Source: an uncultured bacterium (GTDB taxonomy: Bacteria; Babelota; Babeliae; Babelales; Babelaceae). From it: a stretch of 64,000 nt of DNA. A program made the translations under genes and the position numbers. The notes under the pieces are model-generated. The model saw nothing but the letters and a program-made list of their open reading frames with translations. It was not told the DNA's origin and ran no database searches. Shown piece by piece: positions 46,768 through 60,403 of the stretch. Where the stretch lies: positions 896,001-960,000 of the forward strand of contig CAVRKK010000002.1 in the NCBI GenBank assembly GCA_963722385.1, written 5' to 3'. Within the stretch, counting starts at the first letter, position 1, and each line of letters starts with the position of its first letter.

Positions 46768-48390
46768 ATGAAGCGCATGACGTGGTATATTGGGCTTATA
46801 GCGATTAATATTGTTGGTTGTGTTGTCGGGGCTCGCCCCATGGATGATAAGTGGCAAGCTGCTGAACAGTTTGTTGAGGAAGCGGCAAACTTTTTTGCAC
46901 GAAACTCCGCACACACTGCCTGTACCGACTTTACTCATAACCCACAGTGGCGGTTTCCAAGCTCGAGGCTTGTTGTTATCGATGAAAAAGGGCTTATTTG
47001 GTTTTTAATGGATAAGCCTGTCCATCTATGGACGCCATTGGCCGATCTAAAAACCGAACGGAATGTGCCTTTGACACATGATATGCGTTTACAAGGCCAA
47101 AAAGGAGGCTGGGTTGCTTTTATTTGGGATCAAGCGTTGGTTAGAGCATACGTAAAAAATGTTCATAAAGCTGATCAGCTTTTTACGATTGGTCTGCTTG
47201 TTTTTAGTGAAAATCCGCGTGATCAGATTCAAGAGCAAGTATTGGCAGCTTACTCTTATCTTCGTGATCACGGCATTAAGCGAACTGCCGAGGAAATTAA
47301 CAACCCTAATGGACGATTTTTGCATGGTTCTCTCTCTGTGGCATTATATGATCAAGATGGCATCTGTTTGGCAGATTCTTTTGATTGGACGCATATTAAC
47401 CAAAGAAGCACGAATTGGCTTGATGACAGTGGTCAATCGGTTTTTTCTCAATTTGTAGCTGCGGCACAGCATTCGCCGAGCGGGAACGGTTGGGTAAAAT
47501 ATACGTTTCAGGGGATGATTGAGCATGCTTTTGTTAAATATGTACCGCACCGAAATCCTAAAAAGTTTTATATCCTCGCATCAGGGTATTACCCAGCAGT
47601 CGATGAGAAATTTGTGGTCAATTTTGCGCAACAGGCGAGCGACTATATCAAGCAATATGGTATACATAAGGCACTTGCCGACTTTGCAGAACAGAGAACG
47701 ACTTTTTATAAAGCCCGATTAGCGCTTGTTATTTACGACGAAAAGGGCATAGTAAAGGCACAAACGAGATTTCCTTCGCTCATAGGGGTTAATGCTTATA
47801 ATTTACGTGATCAAGCAGGTTATCCTATTACGCAATTGATTTTAAAAAAGGGACTTGAAGAGGGGCACGGGTCGGTTTTCCAATATGTTGCCAATGCCGC
47901 TGAGCCTGTTTACTGCCAAAAATTGGTTGTGCCCGAAGGGGTTTTTGTTATCACGGTGCAAGGCTTTACGCCACTGCACAAGATGACCCTTGCGGCAGGT
48001 ATTGCTGAATGGCTAAGCTACCGGTTAGCAAATCAGCCAGCAAGAATTATCATGAACGCACTAAATCAAGGTGATGTGGTAGGGAATATAGGATTTAGGG
48101 CTTCAGGCGCTCGCCGAGTTTATACTGATTTTGTTATCGAAATTTACGATGGTCAAGGTTTCTGTCTCTCAGCAGGTTCCAATTATTACCTAATATGGCA
48201 AGCTATTGATCGCGGTATGAAACTAAGTGTTGAGAAAATGAAAAGGGCTGGTGCGAGCTCAGGGTCTTTTCATGATGTTCACCAGGGCATAGGTCGTGAC
48301 TATTATTTAAAGGAATGTGTTAAAAGTGCACGAGAAAAGTATTATATTTTTGTTGGCTACCATACGCTCCGCAAGGGAGCCGAGGAATGA
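46768..48390 (+). CDS. Exported protein with four tandem single-Cache-like domains (paralog 1)
   Basis: Signal peptide; four ~125-aa units (A..Y....G...A..F / V.YD..G.CLA / GWV.Y / SGYY). Confidence 0.8.
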   Translation: MKRMTWYIGLIAINIVGCVVGARPMDDKWQAAEQFVEEAANFFARNSAHTACTDFTHNPQWRFPSSRLVVIDEKGLIWFLMDKPVHLWTPLADLKTERNVPLTHDMRLQGQKGGWVAFIWDQALVRAYVKNVHKADQLFTIGLLVFSENPRDQIQEQVLAAYSYLRDHGIKRTAEEINNPNGRFLHGSLSVALYDQDGICLADSFDWTHINQRSTNWLDDSGQSVFSQFVAAAQHSPSGNGWVKYTFQGMIEHAFVKYVPHRNPKKFYILASGYYPAVDEKFVVNFAQQASDYIKQYGIHKALADFAEQRTTFYKARLALVIYDEKGIVKAQTRFPSLIGVNAYNLRDQAGYPITQLILKKGLEEGHGSVFQYVANAAEPVYCQKLVVPEGVFVITVQGFTPLHKMTLAAGIAEWLSYRLANQPARIIMNALNQGDVVGNIGFRASGARRVYTDFVIEIYDGQGFCLSAGSNYYLIWQAIDRGMKLSVEKMKRAGASSGSFHDVHQGIGRDYYLKECVKSAREKYYIFVGYHTLRKGAEE

Positions 48391-48394
48391 TACG

Positions 48395-49969
48395 GTGCGC
48401 AAAAAAATTATAGGCTCCATGCTCATCGTACTACTGAATGTATCTCTATCGACAATGGGGGCTGTGCCCCGCGTGGTCGATTTAAAAATAAAAGCAGAAA
48501 AGCTGCTTGCTCAAGCGATTTCTTTTATTAGAAAAGAGGGTGCTGATAAAGCGTGTGCCGCATTTGCCTCTCAAGAGCAGTGGCGGTATGGTCCGATAAC
48601 TCTTCTTGTTTTAGATGCTAACGGAAGAATACTCCTTGACGAGCATCAGACGATTTTAACGTGGCGGCCTTATTCCCGCAAACAAGGTTATGTGAGCTCT
48701 GTGGTAAGCTCGCTGCTTTTCGCCGCAATAAAAGGGGGCTGGGTTGCTCATCGTTTGTTTAATAGTATGCGCCATATCTATGTCAAGTCAGTGACCGTAG
48801 AGGGCAAAACGTACATAATGGGTGCAAGCTTTTTCGATGAGTCACCTGAGCTTATTGCGATAGCGATGGCCAGAAAAATAGAACGGTTATGGCGAAGTGT
48901 CGGTTTTAATAAAGCGATTGAGCTTGTCAATAACCCTTTTGGTCCAGCATCTGTTGGCCAAGTGTACGGTATAGTTTTTGGTACGGCAGGTGTATGTTGG
49001 GCCTTCAGCAATAACAACGTGTTAGTAGGGCAAAACCTATTTGGAGCGCGTACGGTGAGCGCACAAAGTGCCTATAATTTTAAATATATTTTAAACCTTC
49101 TTAAAGCTGAACCACAAAAGAAAATATGGGTTGACGTAAAAGAGAATGAATTGCTCCATCGTTTCTATTGCCAGCTTTTTACTGATGACAAAACAAATAA
49201 AGACTATGTTCTTATAACAGGGTATTATCCAGATATAAATGACCAAACAATCATCAATATAGGCGAACAAGTTGCTACTGATCTTACCGCGGGCGGGCTC
49301 GAAAGAATTAAAACCCTTTCTCGGCAGAAAGACCTCAGGCTTACGCCAGCAAATCTCACTCTTACGGTCACTGATCGGCAAGGTGTGATGCTCTATCATA
49401 GCGCACCAAACCAAGGTACGTGGTTTACGGGCCGAAATATTCTTGATTATGTTGATGATCGAAAGCGGCCCTATAGCCGTATGCTGATGCAAAAGCTACA
49501 GAAAGCTCCGAGTGCATGGATTACCCGTTTTAATAAGCGTACAATTGAGCGTGTGTATGGTCGTAAAATACCTATGCCGAATGGGGACGTATACATATTC
49601 ATCGATGGTTACTTCCCTTCGACCGACGAAGAAGTAACCCGTATTTTGGTTGATGACGCCTATGACTATTTAGCCGAAAATCCTTCTATACAAGCATTTA
49701 ATGCTTTTATGAGTAGAGACTGTTTCTTTATGCAAGGAGAAAAGCAGATATTTGTTTATGACAAAACGGGAGCATGCTGGGTAAAGGGAACAAATTCCGC
49801 TTTTATATGGAGCCAGGATAAACTTATACCAGCACTTGCTGAAGGCTGGGCAGAAGATAAGCGGTCGTCCAATATTAAGAGAATGTATATTCGAAAGTTA
49901 ACAAAGCAGAATACTTCTCAGCAGAAAGAAGAATTTATTATAGGATCGAGCTATTATTTGGTTAAATAG
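48395..49969 (+). CDS. Exported protein with four tandem single-Cache-like domains (paralog 2)
   Basis: GTG start with GAGGA RBS; signal peptide; AEKLLAQAISFIRKEGADKACAAF and related repeats ending G.Y/F. Confidence 0.8.
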   Translation: MRKKIIGSMLIVLLNVSLSTMGAVPRVVDLKIKAEKLLAQAISFIRKEGADKACAAFASQEQWRYGPITLLVLDANGRILLDEHQTILTWRPYSRKQGYVSSVVSSLLFAAIKGGWVAHRLFNSMRHIYVKSVTVEGKTYIMGASFFDESPELIAIAMARKIERLWRSVGFNKAIELVNNPFGPASVGQVYGIVFGTAGVCWAFSNNNVLVGQNLFGARTVSAQSAYNFKYILNLLKAEPQKKIWVDVKENELLHRFYCQLFTDDKTNKDYVLITGYYPDINDQTIINIGEQVATDLTAGGLERIKTLSRQKDLRLTPANLTLTVTDRQGVMLYHSAPNQGTWFTGRNILDYVDDRKRPYSRMLMQKLQKAPSAWITRFNKRTIERVYGRKIPMPNGDVYIFIDGYFPSTDEEVTRILVDDAYDYLAENPSIQAFNAFMSRDCFFMQGEKQIFVYDKTGACWVKGTNSAFIWSQDKLIPALAEGWAEDKRSSNIKRMYIRKLTKQNTSQQKEEFIIGSSYYLVK

Positions 49970-49977
49970 GTGGCTAT

Positions 49978-51597
49978 ATGTGGTGTGGTTGGTTTTTTGT
50001 TGCCGCGATCTTACTTGCTCATTCATTCTGTTTGGGCCAAGAAAAAGTAAATATAAAAGAAAAAGAGCGTGCGCTCTATAAGCTCTTGCGGCGCGGTGCT
50101 GCCTATTTTAAGCGACACCCTGTTGGCCAATCATGTCACACTTTTACGTATGATCCTCGCTGGCGGAACGGGGAACTTTTTCTTTTTTTACTTGATAGCG
50201 AAGCGGTGTGTTATGCGTTTGGTGATGAGCGATCGAGGGTCTGGACAAGTTTTGCTCATTACCGAGACCTTCTGGGGACACCGTTGGTGAACAAGTTTTT
50301 TCAAAAAGGGAAAAGCACAAAAATTTCAGTTATGATGAATAATGCCTCAATGCACTGCCGTATTAAAAAAATAAATAAAGAAGGGAAGACGTTTATATTA
50401 GGATGTGGATTTTATCCCGAGGCAAGTGAACAGATCGTAGAAAATCTTGTAGCCCAAGCCATTGAGGTGCTTGAAGAGATTGGTACTCAGAATGGTTTTA
50501 GCGAAATCAGTAACCCATTTGGGCACTTGGTGCATGGCGATAGTTGTGTGTTCGTTATTGGCGAAGATGGCATGGTTTACGCGCAGAGTGATAACATAGC
50601 GCAAATGGGAAAAAATATTTTTAATCCACCTTTGGATCCCCCGGGCTCGCTAGCTTATCAGGATAAAGCGGCATATAGGCATGTTTTGGTAAGCTTTTTA
50701 AGAAGCAATGAACAAAGAGCTTGGCTGCCACCTATTATGGTTAATAATACAACTAAGCGCATTTTTGTTGCCAAGTATCGGGATCCCAAAACGCGCAAGC
50801 GGTTTATTGTCGGTTCATTTTATTATCCTGAGCTGAATGATGAAGCTATTTATGAATTAGTGCAAAAAGCTATTACGTACCTTAAAGCCCAAGGGCGGCG
50901 TGCTGCCTTTGAGACATTTAATACGCCAGAAGGTCCTCTGGCACTAGGTAGTGGTAGAATTATAGTTTTAAATTTTGACGGTGCTTGTTTAGTTGATGCA
51001 ACACCAGCGAATTTAGCTGGTTCTTATTTGATAGATCGCGCTGATGTGCAAGGGCATTACCCCTATCGTAGGATCCTTGAGGGTATACAGCGTTATGGGC
51101 GCAGCTGGATTAGCCAGTATCTTAAAAATGCTTATCAGCTCATGTATGCTGAGAAAGTTGATCTTCCTGACGGCTCACTGATCATTGCTGCTGGTTATTG
51201 GCCTGACTCTAAAGCGCTGACCGTGAGGTCGATGGTCGACCGTGCCGCTAATTTTTTGGAGCGGAATGGCGAAAGTGCTGCCTTAAGAAAGTTTACCACG
51301 CATGATTCAGATTTTGTGCGTGGCGATGTCAATATTATGGCGCTTGATCCCACAGGAATTATTTTAAGTGATGGGCCTTTTCGCAAATATCGGATCTGGT
51401 CCGATGTTGCTTTGCGTGATCGATTTGGTAGGCATGTTATTAATAAAATTCTTGAAACAGCCGCGCAGGGAGGAGGATGGGTAGGCTATCGCAAATTTAA
51501 TGCTGACTACCGTGCATATACTCGCCAGATTGATATACCAGGAAGCACTAATACCAAAGATAATAGCATGGTGCTTGTCGCAGGGTATTATCTTTAA
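49978..51597 (+). CDS. Exported protein with four tandem single-Cache-like domains (paralog 3)
   Basis: Four units ending GCGFYPE, GSFYYPE, AAGYWPD, VAGYYL; LVQKAITYLKAQGRRAAF; AQGGGWVGY. Confidence 0.82.
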   Translation: MWCGWFFVAAILLAHSFCLGQEKVNIKEKERALYKLLRRGAAYFKRHPVGQSCHTFTYDPRWRNGELFLFLLDSEAVCYAFGDERSRVWTSFAHYRDLLGTPLVNKFFQKGKSTKISVMMNNASMHCRIKKINKEGKTFILGCGFYPEASEQIVENLVAQAIEVLEEIGTQNGFSEISNPFGHLVHGDSCVFVIGEDGMVYAQSDNIAQMGKNIFNPPLDPPGSLAYQDKAAYRHVLVSFLRSNEQRAWLPPIMVNNTTKRIFVAKYRDPKTRKRFIVGSFYYPELNDEAIYELVQKAITYLKAQGRRAAFETFNTPEGPLALGSGRIIVLNFDGACLVDATPANLAGSYLIDRADVQGHYPYRRILEGIQRYGRSWISQYLKNAYQLMYAEKVDLPDGSLIIAAGYWPDSKALTVRSMVDRAANFLERNGESAALRKFTTHDSDFVRGDVNIMALDPTGIILSDGPFRKYRIWSDVALRDRFGRHVINKILETAAQGGGWVGYRKFNADYRAYTRQIDIPGSTNTKDNSMVLVAGYYL

Positions 51598-52771: not shown

Positions 52772-52787
52772 GTTTTTTTTATGGCCT

Positions 52788-52855
52788 GCCATACGACGTG
52801 TCTTGCGAAGCTCGCAGAGCGCGAAGCAAGAAGCTCTGAAGGAGCGAAGTATGGC
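52788..52855. repeat. REP-like palindromic element overlapping the tRNA-Ser 3' end
   Basis: GCCATAC...GTATGGC stem with nested CGAAGCT..AGCG(C)GAAG cores; related copy at 57573-57600. Confidence 0.65.
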
Positions 52856-52944
52856 GGAGAGAGAGGGATTCGAACCCTCGTGCCCCATTTTAGTAGGACT
52901 CTTGCTTAGCAGGCAAGCGCTTTAGACCACTCAGCCATCTCTCC
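52852..52944 (-). tRNA. tRNA-Ser(GCT)
   Basis: CTTGC-CT-GCT-AA-GCAAG anticodon arm, long variable arm, CCA. Confidence 0.95.
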
Positions 52945-53069
52945 AAAGCAGTCTCATATAGTTTAGCCCATAAATATATCTTAATCAAGCCGACCCCTGA
53001 TTTTATTGGCGAGTTGCTTTCGTTGATGCGCAGGGTAAACTGGCAGTGTTAGGATAATAGGGAGAATAT

Positions 53070-53351
53070 ATGTTAACGCTTGAACTTAAGGTTGTTCCGC
53101 AATCAGGTAAGCAGAAGTGGGCGCTCGATAAAACCGGGCGATTAAAATGCTATCTCAAAAGCCCTGCCCAAGACGGCAAAGCAAACAAGGAGCTCTTGGC
53201 CCTCTTGGGCGATGTTGCGGGCGTTGCTGCCCAAGATATTGTTATCGTAAAGGGATTTACAACTCGGCAGAAAGTCGTTAAGATTCCAGTCAAGCTGAGT
53301 TACGAAGAGTTTATTCGGCGGCTAGGACTTGATCAGCAATTGCCTCTTTAG
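53070..53351 (+). CDS. DUF167/YggU family protein
   Basis: LKVVPQS, LKSPAQDGKANKEL, IVKGFTTRQK. Confidence 0.88.
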   Translation: MLTLELKVVPQSGKQKWALDKTGRLKCYLKSPAQDGKANKELLALLGDVAGVAAQDIVIVKGFTTRQKVVKIPVKLSYEEFIRRLGLDQQLPL

Positions 53352-53373
53352 CAGGTTGATGATGCCTTATTTT
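53247..53373 (+). repeat. Left copy of ~125-bp imperfect direct repeat (attL-like)
   Basis: GTAAAGGGATTTACAACTCGGCAGAAAGTCGTTAAGATTC...GACTTGATCAGCAATTGCCT...GATGCCTTATTTT recurs at 59103-59227. Confidence 0.9.
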
Positions 53374-53570
53374 GTGCTGGAGTCAAGGAAAGAATTGCGG
53401 TACTTAGTTAACAAGTTTAGGAATAAACAGGTCATATTTAGCAGTAGCCGCATTGTCATGAACCAAAGCAAGCTAAAATCCTGGAAGTCTTTTAGCTTAT
53501 GCGAATAGCTTCTGCAAAATATCAAGGACTCTGCTTGAGATTCTGTAACACTCTCCTAATTGAAAGATAG

Positions 53571-54193
53571 GTAAACCACTAGTTTAACTCGTGCGACTAT
53601 CAAGGCTTGGCCCTCGGATTAAGTGTAAAAAAACAGTTGTCGTATAAAATAATATCGGGCTGACGGCTCGATAGGAAGATATAATGACAACTGTTTATCA
53701 AAGTTTAGGCCATTCGAAGTGGAAGTGCAACTATCATGTGGTGTTTATACCGAAGTATCGGAAAAAGGGACTGTACGGCAAAATACGTGAATATTTGAAG
53801 CGACATTTCATGAGCTGGCGCAGCAAAAGGGATGTGAGATAGCAGGAGGGCATATAGTGCAAGATCATGTACATATGATAATCAGATACCGCCAAAATAT
53901 GCGGTATCTGAGATTGTTGGCTATCTGAAAGGAAAAAGCGCGATTGCGGTTGCTCGACAATTTGGCGGTCGCAAGAGGAATTTTAATGGAGAGCAGTTTT
54001 GGACAAGAGGGTATGCTGTTTCAACGGTGGGCTTTGAGCTTGATGATATAAAAGCTTATGTTAAAAATCAGATACAGCTTGATAGTCACAGTTCTGATGA
54101 ATCTGGTGAATTTTAAGTAACGTTAGCGAAACTGGCAGTCCTTGGGACTGCTCCACAGCCCTCAAGCCCCTCGCTTCGCGAGGGCGTTATGAC
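53571..54193 (+). mobile_element. tnpA: IS200-type element; tnpA pseudogene 53684-54116 with two frameshifts
   Basis: HSKWKCNYHVVFIPKYRKK, DHVHM (HUH), YLKGKSA, FWTRGY; subterminal hairpin GCCCCTCGCTTCGCGAGGGC then TTATGAC. Confidence 0.85.
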
Positions 54194-54540
54194 TTCCATA
54201 ACAAAGAGTTTGATAAGCTTACTGCAGATAAGAAAATAGTCACTAAAATGATGGACAATCTCTACCTTGATAAGATCAAAGGGAGAATTACTAAGAGGCG
54301 ACTACGACAGATTTTACCCAGACGGTGAGAGATCAGGCCATTGATGTTGCCATTCGGCTCGAGCAACTGCAAGAGGCTGAAGATAACTACTACCTTACTG
54401 CAAAATTGCCTTCTAGGACTAGCTAAACTTTGAATTATTTACGAGTTCAGAAGTGGAAGAAAAACGGCAAGTTATGAAACTTGTACTATAGTCGAGTTTG
54501 AAAAGGTGCTCTACGACGTGCAACCGCCATTCAATTTTTT
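54194..54540 (+). pseudogene. C-terminal remnant of a large serine recombinase
   Basis: Across several frameshifts: FHNKEFDKLTADKKIVTKMMDNLYLDKIKGRIT..DYDRFY..RDQ..RLEQLQEAEDNYY..ELFTSSEVEEKRQVMKLVL..YDVQPPF; LYLD..G.I and EKR..L patterns typical of LSR coiled-coil C-termini. Confidence 0.7.
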
Positions 54541-54601
54541 ACTAGGATGCAAACTAGGATAGGTGTTGACATCCTAGTAGCATCCGTGTTAACATCCTAG
54601 T
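54541..54601 (+). promoter_or_regulatory. Promoter-overlapping ACTAGGAT/ATCCTAGT box cluster
   Basis: Four boxes around TTGACA (54566); a related cluster lies at 56000-56048. Confidence 0.55.
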
Positions 54602-54627
54602 AGATCGTATCAATATTGGGGGACCTT

Positions 54628-56004
54628 GTGATTGAAAAGCTTCTTGCAAGGAATGAAGGTAAAACGCTGGAATTTAAAGAAAATGCAGGGTCTTTGCCCG
54701 GTATTATAAAGACCGTTATCGCTTTTGCAAATACAGCTGGTGGCACTATTGTTGTGGGAGTAGAAGATAAAGTTAAAAAGGTGGTTGGTGTAAACAATGT
54801 TCTTAACGAAGAGGAGCGCTTGATCAATGCAATTTCAGCTTCTATAGCTCCTTTTTTCATTCCCAATATAGATATTCAGACTTATCGCAAAAAAGAGCTT
54901 GTACTGATTCACGTACCTTATGCTTTAGGCCCTTATTATTTGAAATCTGCAGGCATTGAAAAAGGAACCTATGTCCGATTTGGCTCAACTAACCGTGTGG
55001 CTGATGAAGAAATGGTTGCCACGTTGCGATCTCTCGCAAAGAATGTGTCCTTTGATGAGGCTGCTTATATGTATGGAAAGCCTAATCTCTTGGATTGGCC
55101 TACTGTTAATAAGTTGTTCAAACGGGTACATAAATCGGTAACAGAGAACAAAGCTGAAAGCCTGGGGTTGCTTGCCAATTGCTCGGGAAAAAGGTATCCA
55201 TCATTTGGTGGAATTCTACTCTTTGCTGTTGATCGCTTAGAGATCTTTCCTGATTCCGTAATACGCTGTGCTCGATTTGCAGGAGATAATCGTGGTGGAA
55301 AAATTTTAGATCATATAGATATAAGTTCTCACTTGCCCTATGCAGTTGACGATGTACTTCATTTTATTGAGAAAAACACAATGAAACGAGCTGAAATTGG
55401 CAGAATAGTCAGGACGGATATCCCTGAATATCCACCAGAAGCGCTGCGAGAAGCAGTTATTAATGCTCTTATTCATGCTGATTATGCCATGAAGGGTTCG
55501 TCAATAATGATTGCAATTTTTGATTATTATATAGAAATAACTAATCCTGGCAGTTTACCTCCAGGATTAACGATGGAAAGCGCGCTATCAGGGTCTTCAC
55601 GCGTACGTAATAGGGTTATTGCGCGGGTATTTCGCGAACTGAAACTGATTGAGCAATGGGGGTCTGGGCTAAGAAAGATAATAGAGTCTTGTGTTGCTAG
55701 AGGCTTAAAAGAGCCCAAGTTTGAAGAGCTTGGTAATCAATTTAGAGTTACGCTTTACGCGACTATAGCTCATAAAGTCAAATTGGAGGAATGGCAAAAA
55801 GAGTTTATAGCTTATCTTAAAGAAAAAGTGGAAATTAGTACTAAAGAAGCAGCAGAATTTTGGGGCATTGCTACACGTAACGCTCGTCTTAAGTTAAAAG
55901 AACTTGTTGAGAAAGGGATAATCAAAAAAATTGGAACCGGGCCTAAAGATCCTCGCGGTAGATATATTCTGACTCAGAATTTTAATAACTTGGATGAGAA
56001 CTAG
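54628..56004 (+). CDS. AlbA_2 (Schlafen-like) + HATPase_c_4/RecG-C + winged-HTH protein
   Basis: EGKTLEFKE, AFANTAGG.I.VGV.D, YPPEALREAVINALIHADY, IEQWGSG, C-terminal HTH. Confidence 0.88.
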   Translation: MIEKLLARNEGKTLEFKENAGSLPGIIKTVIAFANTAGGTIVVGVEDKVKKVVGVNNVLNEEERLINAISASIAPFFIPNIDIQTYRKKELVLIHVPYALGPYYLKSAGIEKGTYVRFGSTNRVADEEMVATLRSLAKNVSFDEAAYMYGKPNLLDWPTVNKLFKRVHKSVTENKAESLGLLANCSGKRYPSFGGILLFAVDRLEIFPDSVIRCARFAGDNRGGKILDHIDISSHLPYAVDDVLHFIEKNTMKRAEIGRIVRTDIPEYPPEALREAVINALIHADYAMKGSSIMIAIFDYYIEITNPGSLPPGLTMESALSGSSRVRNRVIARVFRELKLIEQWGSGLRKIIESCVARGLKEPKFEELGNQFRVTLYATIAHKVKLEEWQKEFIAYLKEKVEISTKEAAEFWGIATRNARLKLKELVEKGIIKKIGTGPKDPRGRYILTQNFNNLDEN

Positions 56005-56204
56005 GATGCATGATTATATCCGAGTATCACCCGTGTTAATATCCTAGTTGGTATAGATGGAATATAGGTATATATGTTCTTTAGATTGGTTAGAAACAGC
56101 AAGACTTGGAAAGGATGACCAACTATTGCAATATGAATCACGAATTGATTATGCTATTATTAATAATGTTAATTGAGTAATTATCCATTTTAAGGTGAAG
56201 GTTG

Positions 56205-56412
56205 ATGAAAGAGAGTATTAATCTATCTTTTAATCGCTTTAAGCGGAATAAGTATACCCTTTCTCTCGAGAGCTCAAGGGTGCCCTCAATCACACTATAA
56301 CGCTGCAGCAAAAATATGTTGCTTCACTGAGTATAATCCAACAACCAAACAATGTTGCCCTCTAAAATATCTTTCATATAATGGTAGCGGGTGTGTCTTC
56401 TCGTTAAGGTAA
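56205..56412 (+). pseudogene. Small secreted Cys-rich peptide gene with +1 frameshift after the start
   Basis: Removing one A after ATG gives MKRVLIYLLIALSGISIPFLSRA-QGCPQSHYNAAAKICCFTEYNPTTKQCCPLKYLSYNGSGCVFSLR*. Confidence 0.6.
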
Positions 56413-56464
56413 TCATACTATTAATAATTAATAATTGAATCAACGATGATGTCAGCTCTTTGAG

Positions 56465-56507
56465 AATCTTTCTGTACCTAAGCGGCGCGTTTAGGTACAG
56501 AAAGATT
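56465..56507. terminator. Strong hairpin downstream of the Cys-rich peptide gene
   Basis: AATCTTTCTGTACCTAA...TTAGGTACAGAAAGATT 17-bp IR. Confidence 0.6.
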
Positions 56508-57059
56508 AAGTTTGGCGCTAGCCTACATAACTGCCAATATTTATTATAGAACCTTTGTTGCGCAGTTAGAGGAACTTGTGACGGTGCAACAAATATAGCT
56601 CCGATCCTTTAAGTGTTTTGCTTCTGCATAATCGTAGGCTAGTGCCTCAGCATCACTTAACCTATCTTTTGAACAGATATAGTCTGTATCGAATAGAAAG
56701 GTAAGCTCTATCTTAAAATATAGAAACAGTTGACCGTGTATTGTTTAACCTCCTATAATATATTATATAAAGTTTGTCATTAAAAATAGGAATAGCAGAA
56801 GCGATATAGCTTTTTCATATATTTTAGTTACCTGCTTTTACTAATCTTATTACCAAGTACCTGCAGCACATCGATGGTGCCGTTCTAGTTTACATCTAAA
56901 TGATTTAGACACTTCAAAGGCCTTTGATTTTTACTCAAAGGCCCAAGTCCTGCTCCTTAAGATACTCTTTTGCCATTCTAGCAGTCAGAGTTGGGTCTAT
57001 ATGACCTACCCCCTCCTATTAGGGAGCTTCGATTCCATTAAAAAAATGTAAAAGGGAAG

Positions 57060-57352
57060 CTATTACATTATCGAGTTTTGAACAATTATTTGTCGTAGTA
57101 CCAGTCGAGCTGTTTGTGCTGCAGTCTTGCGTAAACACTGTTATGCCGACTCCGTTATTAGTAACAAGATAGGACGCTGTGGGTGAGAATGTTAACGAAG
57201 AAGCAGCTGCGCTGTAGAGTATAGGATGTCCCTTCGCTCAATGATCCTCCGGTTCCTACAGTAAATACTGTTATTTCTTCAGAAAAATTAGCCGTAGCTA
57301 AACAATTACCCGATGGCGAAGCGATACCGAGTGAATTCAGCACATCTTTCAT
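57060..57352 (-). pseudogene. Fragment of beta-propeller (lactonase-like) protein
   Basis: SPSGNCLATANF..ITVFTV and a second shifted blade-like YLVTNN..GITVFT; no intact ORF. Confidence 0.4.
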
Positions 57353-57572
57353 TGATCTTTTTAGAATATTACGTGTAATTTGTCAATATACCAGGCTAAG
57401 AATCTTGCCATCAAAAAGTTATTTCGTTAAAAAGCTCAAAAGAAAAGGAGAGCAGCTGTCCTTCCCTTAAATTCAAGATAGAAGCCTACTGCTGGATTGC
57501 TAAAAATATCTTTGAGTATCCTAATTAGGATATCTTTGTATTGAATAATATCGATAGTCATTTAAAATGCTT

Positions 57573-57600
57573 GCCATACGAAGCTTTAGCGAAGTATGGC
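57573..57600. repeat. REP-like palindrome
   Basis: GCCATACGAAGCTTTAGCGAAGTATGGC; same family as 52788-52855. Confidence 0.65.
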
Positions 57601-57854
57601 GGTACTTAGTTCAGGAAGAAAGAAGTTGCCCCCTTGTCCCAATATATCATGAATTTCTTTGTTAGGCAGCCTAAAATTGGGGTATGAGCATTAACTATTG
57701 CTATGGCTGTATGCTTGTTAAGCTAGAGCTTCTTAGAAGAATTATACTAATAAATATATAAGTTAATCGATATTTTATTCATTCGAAGTATAAAATCCTA
57801 GATTATTTATATTGTTATAGGTATAATTTTTGTAAACATGACGGAGTTTTTGTT

Positions 57855-58316
57855 ATGAAAAAAGGATCTAGTTCTGAAAAGCTTTTACTTGAGTATATTT
57901 CAGAGGCAGCGAAAGAAGTACAAACAATTGCGCGAGGACTGACGATAGGAAAATACGTTAAGTTTATTCGGCGGCAATTAAGAATGTCTCAGCAAGTTCT
58001 TGCAAAACGTGCTCAAGTTCCGCAGCCGACGATTTCTCGGCTCGAACAAGGCCGGAGTGAACCAACCTTATCAACATTGTCTAAGATATTTGATGCTCTT
58101 TTTTGTGAATTGGTTATTGCTCCTGTATTAAAAGAACCTATCGATATTATTCTACAAAAGCAGGCACATAAAGTTGCTCAAAAGCACATTGCTTATTTGA
58201 AGGGGACGATGAATCTTGAGCAACAAGAGCCAGATAATCAATTAGTAGCAGAGCTTGTTAAGCGTAAGCAGGAAGAATTACTGCATACCAATAGCAAACA
58301 ACTATGGGAAGAATGA
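57855..58316 (+). CDS. XRE-family HTH protein (mobile mystery protein A-like)
   Basis: IRRQLRMSQQVLAKRA.V.QPTISRLEQG..TLSTL, C-terminal GTMNLEQQ..LW; stop overlaps the Fic gene start. Confidence 0.85.
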   Translation: MKKGSSSEKLLLEYISEAAKEVQTIARGLTIGKYVKFIRRQLRMSQQVLAKRAQVPQPTISRLEQGRSEPTLSTLSKIFDALFCELVIAPVLKEPIDIILQKQAHKVAQKHIAYLKGTMNLEQQEPDNQLVAELVKRKQEELLHTNSKQLWEE

Positions 58317-59016
58317 ACATGATATTTTTTAGCTTTCCAGAAGATGCAACACCTATCAATGACTATAGCGGATTAAAGCTCACCTGGGTAAAAGATATAC
58401 CTGACTTGAATAGAGCTGAAGCTGAAAATATTATTCAAGCCAGGATCAATACCTGCATAAAAAGGTAATGATGCCTGAGCGGTGGTTTCATATAAGCTTC
58501 TTGAAAAAGGTGCATCAAGAAATGTTTGGTGATGTATGGGACTGGGCAGGAGAGTTTAGGAAAACTGTTACGTCAGTTGGAATAGAGCCAGCTTTAATTC
58601 ATCATCAATTAGGCGAATTATGCATCGAAGTAAATGCATGGTCTAAAAATCCTGTTGAGCTCACTTTTGTGGAAAAAGCTGTTCGGATTCACCACCGATT
58701 AGTATTCATTCATCCTTTTGAGAATGGGAACGGCCGCTTCTCGCGCTTAATCGCCGATCGCTATTTAGCAGCTTACCATTGCTCATACCCAAGCTGGCCC
58801 CATATTTTACAAGATAATGGTGAAGCACGATTATTATATATTCAAAGTTTGAAAGCAGCAGATAGAGGTGATTTGCTGCTGAAGTTGGTCTATCTCTATG
58901 GTGCAAGAAACCCTTCTGCTCATGATTTAGCAAAGAATCCTTTCTATAGAAGACATTTTTTAGAAGAGCAAACGTTAGCGATTATTAAAGCTTTAACTCG
59001 ATTTATACAGAGCTAG
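58313..59016 (+). pseudogene. Fic-domain protein (mobile mystery protein B-like), frameshifted at ~58441
   Basis: N-part DATPINDYSGL...LNRAEAENIIQA; 1-nt loss; then MFGDVWDWAGEFR and HPFENGNGRFSR. Confidence 0.82.
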
Positions 59017-59102
59017 AATAGTCAAAATGATGTAAGAACTGCAATCTCTATAACGCTTATTTCAAGATTGCAATAAAATTAATTAATAAATTTTAGAAAG
59101 CT

Positions 59103-59227
59103 GTAAAGGATTTACAACCCGGCAGAAAGTCGTTAAGATTCGTGATAAGCTCCGTGTGGAGAGTTCATTCGGCGGCTAAGACTTGATCAGCAATTGCCTT
59201 TGTAGCAGGTAGACGATGCCTTATTTT
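59103..59227 (+). repeat. Right copy of ~125-bp direct repeat (attR-like); displaced DUF167 3' end plus pilC start
   Basis: Aligns with 53247-53373, with substitutions and two 1-nt deletions. Confidence 0.9.
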
Positions 59228-60403
59228 TTATGGCGAGGAATCGATTTAACGGGAACCATTCGGAGGGGCAAGCAATTTGCTCGTTCAAAACAGGTGCTCG
59301 AAAAGAGCTTGCTTAATAACGAAATAGCGCTACTCGCCTCTCGATTGTCTCGGCGCAGGGCGCGGAAACTATCAAATAAGCTTTGTGTTTCTTTGTGCGA
59401 CCAGATAGCAACACTTCTCGAAGCAGGATTACGTCTTGCCGAAGCGCTTGACCTTGCAAGCAAAACGATGTCGTGCAAGCTGGCCAGCACCATCTTAGCT
59501 GATTGCGGCCAAGCTGTTCGCGAAGGTATTCCCTTGCATAAGGTTCTTGAATGTCACGTGCCATGGATCGACAGCTTAATGATCTCATTAGTGGTGGCTG
59601 GAGAAGAGTCAGGCGCGCTCGCACGGACTTTTAGAATTTTAAGTGTTCATTATGAAGCACAGGAAGAGCTCGCGAGAAAATGCAAATCAGCACTTATTAT
59701 GCCGGCCATCACGTTTGCTGTTTTTGTCGTAATTGCGGTAGCTCTCTTTGTGCTTGTTATACCACGATTCGAGGCTCTCTTTATAATGCTTAATAAACCG
59801 TTGCCGGGGGTTACGCGCGGTATATTTGCGATAAGCTCCTGGCTACGATCTCGTAAAGCAGTAGGTAGTGGTGGCTTGGTTGTGGTCGCTTTAGTGCTGG
59901 CCTGGCATGCCTGGCGCTGGTATGTTCCCCTTCGAACGCGAGAAAATTTGGTGCTATCTTTGCCATGGGTGGGCAAGCTGGTGTGCTTGTATGGTATGAC
60001 TTTTTTCTTGCAGACGCTCAGTGTCTTGCTTGATGGAGGTGTACATTTGGTCACAGCGCTGGCGCTTGCCCGGCGAGCTCTAAAAAGTGATATGCTGGTT
60101 TCTATGCTTAGTCAGGTGGAGCAGGATGTTGAAAAGGGAGAGCCGTTGAGTAGTGCGTTGTCTCGTCATGGCCGCCTTAATGCGCCTGATTTGGTATCGC
60201 TTTTTACCCTGGGGGAAGCAACCGGAGCCCTCGCGCTCATGGTCCGTAAAGGAGCTGAGCTCTATCATAAAAAGATCTACCATGCACTACAGGTACTCGC
60301 CACGTTGGTGAGCCCGGTGGTATTATTGCTGCTTGGGTTTATTATCGGGTTACTGGTATTTGCCGTCTACGCTCCCCTTTTATCGCTTTCGCGCATCATA
60401 TAA
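59216..60403 (+). CDS. pilC: Type IV pilus / T2SS inner-membrane platform protein PilC/GspF
   Basis: QIATLLEAGL.L.EAL, AGEESGAL, three TMs, LGEATGAL. Confidence 0.9.
   Translation: MPYFLWRGIDLTGTIRRGKQFARSKQVLEKSLLNNEIALLASRLSRRRARKLSNKLCVSLCDQIATLLEAGLRLAEALDLASKTMSCKLASTILADCGQAVREGIPLHKVLECHVPWIDSLMISLVVAGEESGALARTFRILSVHYEAQEELARKCKSALIMPAITFAVFVVIAVALFVLVIPRFEALFIMLNKPLPGVTRGIFAISSWLRSRKAVGSGGLVVVALVLAWHAWRWYVPLRTRENLVLSLPWVGKLVCLYGMTFFLQTLSVLLDGGVHLVTALALARRALKSDMLVSMLSQVEQDVEKGEPLSSALSRHGRLNAPDLVSLFTLGEATGALALMVRKGAELYHKKIYHALQVLATLVSPVVLLLLGFIIGLLVFAVYAPLLSLSRII

Follow-up and report, generated by a model that had tools for sequence, protein, structure and literature searches.

We analysed a 64,000-nucleotide stretch (the window; C2:896001-960000) of an uncultured Babelaceae bacterium, whose genome of 1.6 Mb lies in 2 contigs (C1 and C2). 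In this window, 5.7 kb of mobile and decayed DNA lie between two copies of a repeat made of the 3' end of DUF167 (yggU) and the start of pilC, so that pilC now stands 5.9 kb from DUF167. This island is a decayed relic of tandem units of a large serine recombinase (LSR) of the tRNA-Asp type; its LSR is dead, and its ends are no longer an LSR pair. With just better than even confidence, and going by sequence comparison, we favour the reading that such a relic was joined to DUF167-pilC by recombination that was not site-specific, in which case the left repeat copy would be native and the right copy would be the present 5' end of pilC. A previous sequence-only reading of the window had proposed that DUF167 is the attB of this LSR clade, and that the left copy is a replacement 3' end carried in by the element.

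The duplicated gene ends and the island between them

The two copies (53247-53373 and 59103-59227) align over 127 nt with 85.8% identity (E 2e-33), which confirms the duplication reported by the sequence-only reading, and a whole-genome comparison gave no third copy. The left copy completes an intact DUF167 and, after a 10-nt spacer, stops after the first four pilC codons. Over its 105 DUF167 positions, the right copy shows 14 substitutions, 7 of them at third positions, and two 1-nt gaps; it deviates at Tyr, Glu and Gly positions from the residues seen in relatives, and runs into an intact PilC/T2SSF of 395 aa. The abortive pilC start on the left and the frameshifted copy leading into the real pilC on the right are therefore both as first described.

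The features are listed below by window position and strand.

52852..52944 (-): tRNA-Ser(GCT), host context; CCA end with the TGGCGG core as in the tRNA-Asp target of the LSR
53070..53351 (+): DUF167/YggU gene, intact, 93 aa (PF02594, E 6e-18; TIGR00251)
53247..53373 (+): left repeat copy, comprising the DUF167 3' end, 10-nt spacer and pilC codons 1-4 (53362-53373)
53374..53394 (+): 21-nt spacer; candidates are a decayed tRNA-flank hairpin or decayed pilC codons
53395..53445 (+): distal attachment (att) arm, P', of a tRNA-Asp-type LSR; one base of the core altered; encodes the tail of the free-form LSR
53684..54116 (+): IS200 tnpA with two frameshifts (PF01797; NF033573; three-frame reading); its right-end hairpin abuts the LSR remnant
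54191..54544 (+): C-terminal remnant of a large serine recombinase, frameshifted (homology to the intact own-genome LSR)
54533..54601 (+): repeat unit preceding AlbA, also present at 55978-56048
54616..56004 (+): AlbA_2/HATPase_c_4/helix-turn-helix (HTH) gene, intact, 462 aa
56205..56412 (+): remnant of a Cys-rich, galaxin-like sequence whose ATG is not in frame
57130..57334 (-): fragment of a gene for a lactonase-type repeat protein (beta-propeller)
57443..57564 (-): 5' fragment of a toxin gene (AbiEii); an intact copy in the same genome matches at 84%
57567..57611 (+): tRNA-flank hairpin followed by the second att arm, which is shortened (core at 57597)
57855..58316 (+): mobile mystery protein A (HTH), intact
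58313..59016 (+): mobile mystery protein B (Fic), with a frameshift near 58460 after ~49 codons
59103..59227 (+): right repeat copy, comprising the DUF167 3' end (decayed), the spacer and the start of the real pilC
59216..60403 (+): pilC/T2SSF gene, intact, 395 aa (PF00482; HofC/GspF models)

The assembly was compared with short-read contigs from four runs of one study (soil metagenomes, perhaps the genome's own source). Contigs from three of these runs span, free of gaps, the left copy (53033-53480 and 53115-53455), the right copy (58997-59229), the IS200-LSR joint (53997-54506) and the Fic frameshift. An assembly artefact is hence hardly credible: the genome is a single one of metagenome type and its read support comes from one study, perhaps its source, but the copies differ by 14%, and each is covered, along with its particular flanks, by separate contigs that show no differing letters. 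No excision, empty-site or island-skipping joint was found in the contigs of the four runs, in which rare forms are dropped. Excision driven by the LSR, as envisaged earlier, is not possible from the present ends, and the island could now be lost only if the repeats, 86% identical, recombined homologously.

From left to right, the island consists of an arm, IS200, the LSR end, AlbA, scraps, a hairpin, a second arm and mobile mystery A/B; it contains no tRNA. The LSR remnant (~350 nt) corresponds to residues 355-476 of an intact LSR of 486 aa in the same genome (Resolvase, Recombinase and Zn ribbon) and matches an intact homologue at 79% over 34 aa; it is devoid of the N-terminal 354 residues, with the catalytic domain, and of the final core codons. 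No further LSR sequence was detected left of IS200 or at the right junction. The identity of this remnant and its abutment on IS200 had been correctly recognised, whereas its proposed extent (53380-54560) was too large. Similarly, the Cys-rich sequence is present but lacks an in-frame start and is a shortened paralogue of a 202-aa gene, and both mobile mystery genes are there but only A is intact, as the frameshift of B was confirmed in a short-read contig. The AlbA/Schlafen-like gene was identified rightly and is intact. The att arms at 53395 and 57597 and the beta-propeller and AbiEii scraps had gone unmentioned. Following mobile mystery B, ~85 nt lead to DUF167 codon 60, with no LSR and no core at this right end.

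The genome contains one distant paralogue of pilC, as well as two T2SSE ATPases and a ComEC-like gene. Since the island genes before pilC are co-oriented with it and no terminator-like site was scored inside the island, read-through into pilC from mobile mystery A/B may occur. The separation of pilC from the DUF167 transcript, as first proposed, is borne out as a distance of 5.9 kb and may bear on pilC expression. A sigma-70-like site (9/12) is present in both repeat copies, with 31 of 32 nt alike, in a scan that gave 32 such sites against 17.9 expected. A conserved pilC promoter within the repeat was considered and rejected, given that in relatives (104 of 109 scored) this site shows no excess over the synonymous-codon expectation (5.98 vs 6.17).

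Some further observations concern the cargo and its surroundings. Genes of the AlbA_2-HATPase_c_4-HTH type carry on both flanks a related unit of 60-70 nt with internal inverted repeats, in the window (54533-54601 and 55978-56048) and at one paralogue (C2:73758-73886, C2:1253011-1254402), which may be an operator or a cassette end. In the genome's own tRNA-Asp island, the counterpart of the 54533-54601 unit comes after an att-arm tail. An AT-rich inverted repeat of 103 nt (57733-57835) lies directly upstream of mobile mystery A and is a possible operator of its HTH. Outside the island, window positions 46768-51597 hold three tandem, similar-looking open reading frames (ORFs) of 540-550 aa with repeated modules and what look like predicted signal peptides.

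Attachment sites of the recombinase clade

Homologues of the intact own-genome LSR were found in 109 of the 261 genomes of the phylum. In 27 of the 30 best-scoring loci (one of which is the own copy), the LSR is terminated, via a Trp codon, by a tRNA CCA end on the other strand; the tRNAs are Glu (12), Asp (8), Arg (4) and Gln (3). Of the other three loci, two end at the core in DNA without a tRNA and the third is truncated. A further LSR scan of assembled genomes yielded 3 loci, and both full-length ones (2/2) end at a tRNA 3' end; two of the three named LSR relatives are Candidatus Babeliales genomes. Because the last LSR codons run into the tRNA CCA end, the att site lies inside the LSR gene. 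The clade crosses over at a 6-nt TGGCxx core within the LSR's own last codons, and an integrated unit has the order hairpin, core, att arm, cargo, LSR, core, tRNA.

The distal att half was located through a 15-nt motif common to 53395 and 57597. The motif alone is not enriched (28 matches vs 32 in the reversed control), and the case for an att arm rests instead on the continuation of the matches and on tRNA geometry: 18 of the 26 foreign matches extend into one conserved reading, which is the tail of the free-form enzyme. Moreover, one foreign arm is joined directly to an LSR C-terminus, and the arm or LSR points to a downstream tRNA in 13 of 17 longer regions. The cores match the tRNA type in 13 regions, with TGGCGG for Asp (10), TGGCGT for Glu (2) and TGGCTG for Gln (1).

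The window island shares this layout. Its left arm (53395), which starts 21 nt beyond the repeat and past the pilC start copy, matches 14 arms at 19 of 33 nt outside the motif, a value equalled at 83 of 1,268,453 contig positions. The three nearest relatives of the LSR remnant (83, 78 and 75%) all have the TGGCGG core; two end in tRNA-Asp and the third lies in the genome's own tRNA-Asp island, which four pieces of the window island resemble at 80-88%. The unit order is found twice in the window, disrupted by IS200 and deletions and with no tRNA at the right end. Hairpins like the one before 57597 are common tRNA-end flanks in relatives. Displaced arms do occur in this genome, as a hairpin-plus-arm without a tRNA is also present at C2:1083820.

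This last arm belongs to a second displaced unit (C2:1083340-1087877), which holds a beta-propeller gene, a DDE transposase, an AbiE pair, a hairpin and an att arm in an order that matches window 57130-57611, and which adjoins no tRNA or Rfam RNA. Other observations relate to the clade as a whole. Upon integration, a conserved LSR tail of ~30 residues gives way to a few residues translated from the tRNA sequence, and the core varies with the type of tRNA. One of the two LSRs that end at the core in non-tRNA DNA precedes mutS; the two may be off-target landings. Short hairpins with TGG at both ends, able to pair with the last bases of the tRNA, lie at the 3' ends of many tRNAs and precede most distal att arms (in the window, 52785-52851 and 57567-57596), and may be small mobile repeats; in the 27 junctions of intact LSRs with their tRNAs, none was found at the boundary. 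The own-genome members of the tRNA-end LSR clade are C2:657829-659355 and C1:304011-305532. Both own-genome LSR islands contain a similar ORF (C2:53065-54181, C2:656001-656744) that resembles a putative replication-initiation gene.

DUF167-pilC in relatives and the origin of the island

DUF167 was detected in 244 of the 261 genomes. The DNA downstream of it was fetched for 141 of the 243 other genomes (29 with 1.5 kb, 8 of these again with more, and 112 with up to 10-14 kb) and for 14 metagenome loci, and 163 loci were scored. Genomes fetched twice were merged; one of these, adjacent in its short locus and with 627 nt in its long one, was counted as 627 nt. In 109 of the 141 relatives, pilC lies within 150 nt of DUF167; the distance is 150-700 nt in 3 and >700 nt in 4, which have plain genes there and no repeats, and in 25 pilC falls outside the fetched stretch. 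In none of the 141 relatives did the DNA downstream of DUF167 contain an LSR match or a further DUF167 copy of >27 nt, and none has a split pilC; the 14 metagenome loci also lack an LSR match and such a copy. Given the 109 adjacent pairs and the absence of an LSR or a second DUF167 end in all 141, DUF167 and pilC are normally contiguous and the insertion is seen once. The earlier view that a mobile insertion with an LSR remnant interrupts a contiguous pair is thus borne out.

Upstream of DUF167, tRNA-Ser(GCT) lies at a distance of 126-218 nt and is also found upstream in 39 of 40 relatives, none of which has an LSR or arm there. The gap from tRNA-Arg(ACG) to the next tRNA-Ser in this region varies among relatives from <200 nt to ~10 kb, and this variation occurs in them without an LSR of this clade.

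These results argue strongly against DUF167/yggU as attB of the clade, a proposal that we now hold to be very improbable. The repeat and the LSR remnant do occur together; nevertheless, the clade targets tRNA ends with an att core inside the LSR gene, the arm lies outside the repeat, and no core exists at the DUF167 site, as the tRNA-Asp end matches the start of the DUF167 repeat at 7 of 30 nt, compared with 19 of 30 for tRNA-Ser(GCT). Intact LSRs beside DUF167, which that proposal called for, were seen in 0/141 relatives downstream and 0/40 upstream, and neither DUF167 nor PilC was found in the 86 other LSR or arm loci. The geometry also fits less well with the left copy as a carried replacement than with a native left copy and a right copy that supplies the 5' end of pilC, while the codon pattern fits either.

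Because the broken LSR is of a group found at the ends of tRNA genes, the island likely arrived by accidental recombination. No single LSR reaction yields the right end, given that it has neither LSR nor core and reaches DUF167 codon 60 after ~85 nt. Two joins would then be needed: one between the start of the host pilC and a position immediately ahead of the first arm, and another, or else a deletion, by which codon 60 of DUF167 from a second allele came to follow the end of mobile mystery B. A likely route would be unequal or homology-aided illegitimate recombination with a related, island-bearing allele, after which the redundant part would have been lost. The neighbouring tRNA-Ser(GCT), which shares the common core, is a plausible first landing site.

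Several points weigh against this account. The nearest DUF167 is only 49% identical, all 14 metagenome loci being at or below this value, and the search yielded no close relative in which the site is empty or otherwise filled; the order of events and the choice of the native copy are accordingly proposals. The route through tRNA-Ser(GCT) is without an example, as an LSR or arm at the tRNA-Ser/Arg cluster was seen in 0/40 relatives. The 21-nt spacer matches hairpin flanks weakly (p 0.07 against 17 hairpin flanks; p 0.24 against the local hairpin) and contains a TGG displaced by one base from the position of pilC Trp6. In addition, the beginning of the arm 21 nt from the island edge is a coincidence that the account must carry, and the repeat starts at a short palindrome, of a kind present at 2% of random sites.

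The position of the arm, 21 nt after pilC codon 4, is what one would look for if a tRNA-Asp-type LSR had instead integrated off target, splitting pilC at TGGCG in codons Trp6-Arg7, and if illegitimate recombination with an intact allele had later replaced the LSR end by a DUF167 3' end and pilC start, restoring the gene. The true pilC does have TGGCGA at codons 6-7, TGGCG occurs in the pilC starts of 17 of 95 relatives, and 2 of the 30 intact homologues end at the core in non-tRNA DNA. T2SSF is also among LSR targets, although not significantly so (9/1069; PMC10083194 supplement). We nevertheless consider this course of events unlikely: the match between the pilC site and the tRNA-Asp end is limited to 9 of 30 nt, 18 extra bases have to be accounted for, and the spacer resembles the genome's own pilC no better than chance (p 0.5). 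A direct pilC-arm junction is absent from the 261 genomes (2 one-mismatch matches, with 2 in the control and none near DUF167 or pilC), and none of the 141 relatives has a split pilC. Equally doubtful is the fuller version of these events, in which a tRNA-end LSR would have disabled the pilus through a look-alike core in the pilC start and the host would have regained it when another DUF167-pilC junction was grafted on after the island, so that promoters of the island now drive pilC.

The palindrome raises another alternative, namely that a lost recombinase of another kind integrated at it, in DUF167 codons 59-62, with a replacement 3' end (the left copy), and that tRNA-type LSR units were nested later. 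An inverted repeat begins both copies and is better in the right one, 7 of the 14 substitutions fall at third positions, as expected if both copies once coded, and a carried-replacement design is known for other targets (PMC4383910, PMC4482086). However, the third-position excess also fits selection on one copy only, the island has no trace of another recombinase and the genome's one tyrosine recombinase lies elsewhere, and a second DUF167 end of >27 nt was seen in 0/141 relatives, so that we regard this alternative as improbable. Accidental joining of a tRNA-Asp-type relic remains the reading that we prefer.

Known integration systems and the meaning of the locus

The closest published layout is that of DsiB of Dehalococcoides, whose att site overlaps the 3' end of the LSR and which builds tandem islands at ssrA (PMC3146451). 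As in the clade described here, the LSR 3' end overlaps an att site, which lies at the 3' terminus of a gene for a structural RNA, islands are arranged in tandem and units without a recombinase are left behind. DsiB uses a tmRNA T-loop and a 20-bp repeat (PMC3146451), whereas the present clade uses the CCA end of tRNA-Asp/Glu/Arg/Gln and a 6-nt core; moreover, the LSR copy in the window is dead and away from any tRNA.

Islands in tRNA genes (PMC4383910) and in dusA (PMC4482086) resemble the locus in that the end of a host gene occurs twice around foreign DNA, with one working copy and one displaced; dusA islands supply a new 5' end, as the right copy does here for pilC (PMC4482086). They differ in being formed by tyrosine integrases at targets that recur in many genomes (PMC4383910, PMC4482086), while here no recombinase for the site and no second genome were found. 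Tyrosine recombinases were also the reason for rejecting the tRNA-targeting type III integrative and conjugative elements of Elizabethkingia as a precedent (10.1101/402107). AbaR interrupts the competence gene comM (PMC11441513), as the present insertion lies at a gene for the platform of type IV pili or type II secretion systems (T2SS), and LSR targets are enriched for competence genes (PMC10083194). The present case differs in that the pilC gene is whole, the event has a single instance and the recombinase has no specificity for this site.

DUF167 and yggU gave 0 matches in 8 supplements of PMC10083194, and a search for literature combining yggU, an integrase and an attachment site found none. 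One candidate paper for DUF167 and prophages (PMC7010278) was rejected, as it concerns DUF1672. No literature on tRNA-end LSRs in this bacterial order was found, the supplements of Mageeney 2020, which may bear on this, having been outside the search.

The locus is a dead, displaced relic of a known island type in a single genome. A DUF167 attB, if true, would have added a new integration locus beside a pilus gene, which our tests do not support. If the off-target course were true, the locus would be a fossil record of how the DNA-uptake machinery of an intracellular bacterium of the Babeliales type was attacked and then repaired, and such enzymes could strike pilus genes. The locus also serves as a warning example, as a long diverged repeat and an integrase scrap need not belong together. 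Regarding the recombinases themselves, a statement of 2015 from the Islander work held that serine integrases were not known to target tRNA genes (PMC4383910). In contrast, this group has many LSRs at tRNA CCA ends, with the att core in their own last codons and a layout close to that of DsiB.

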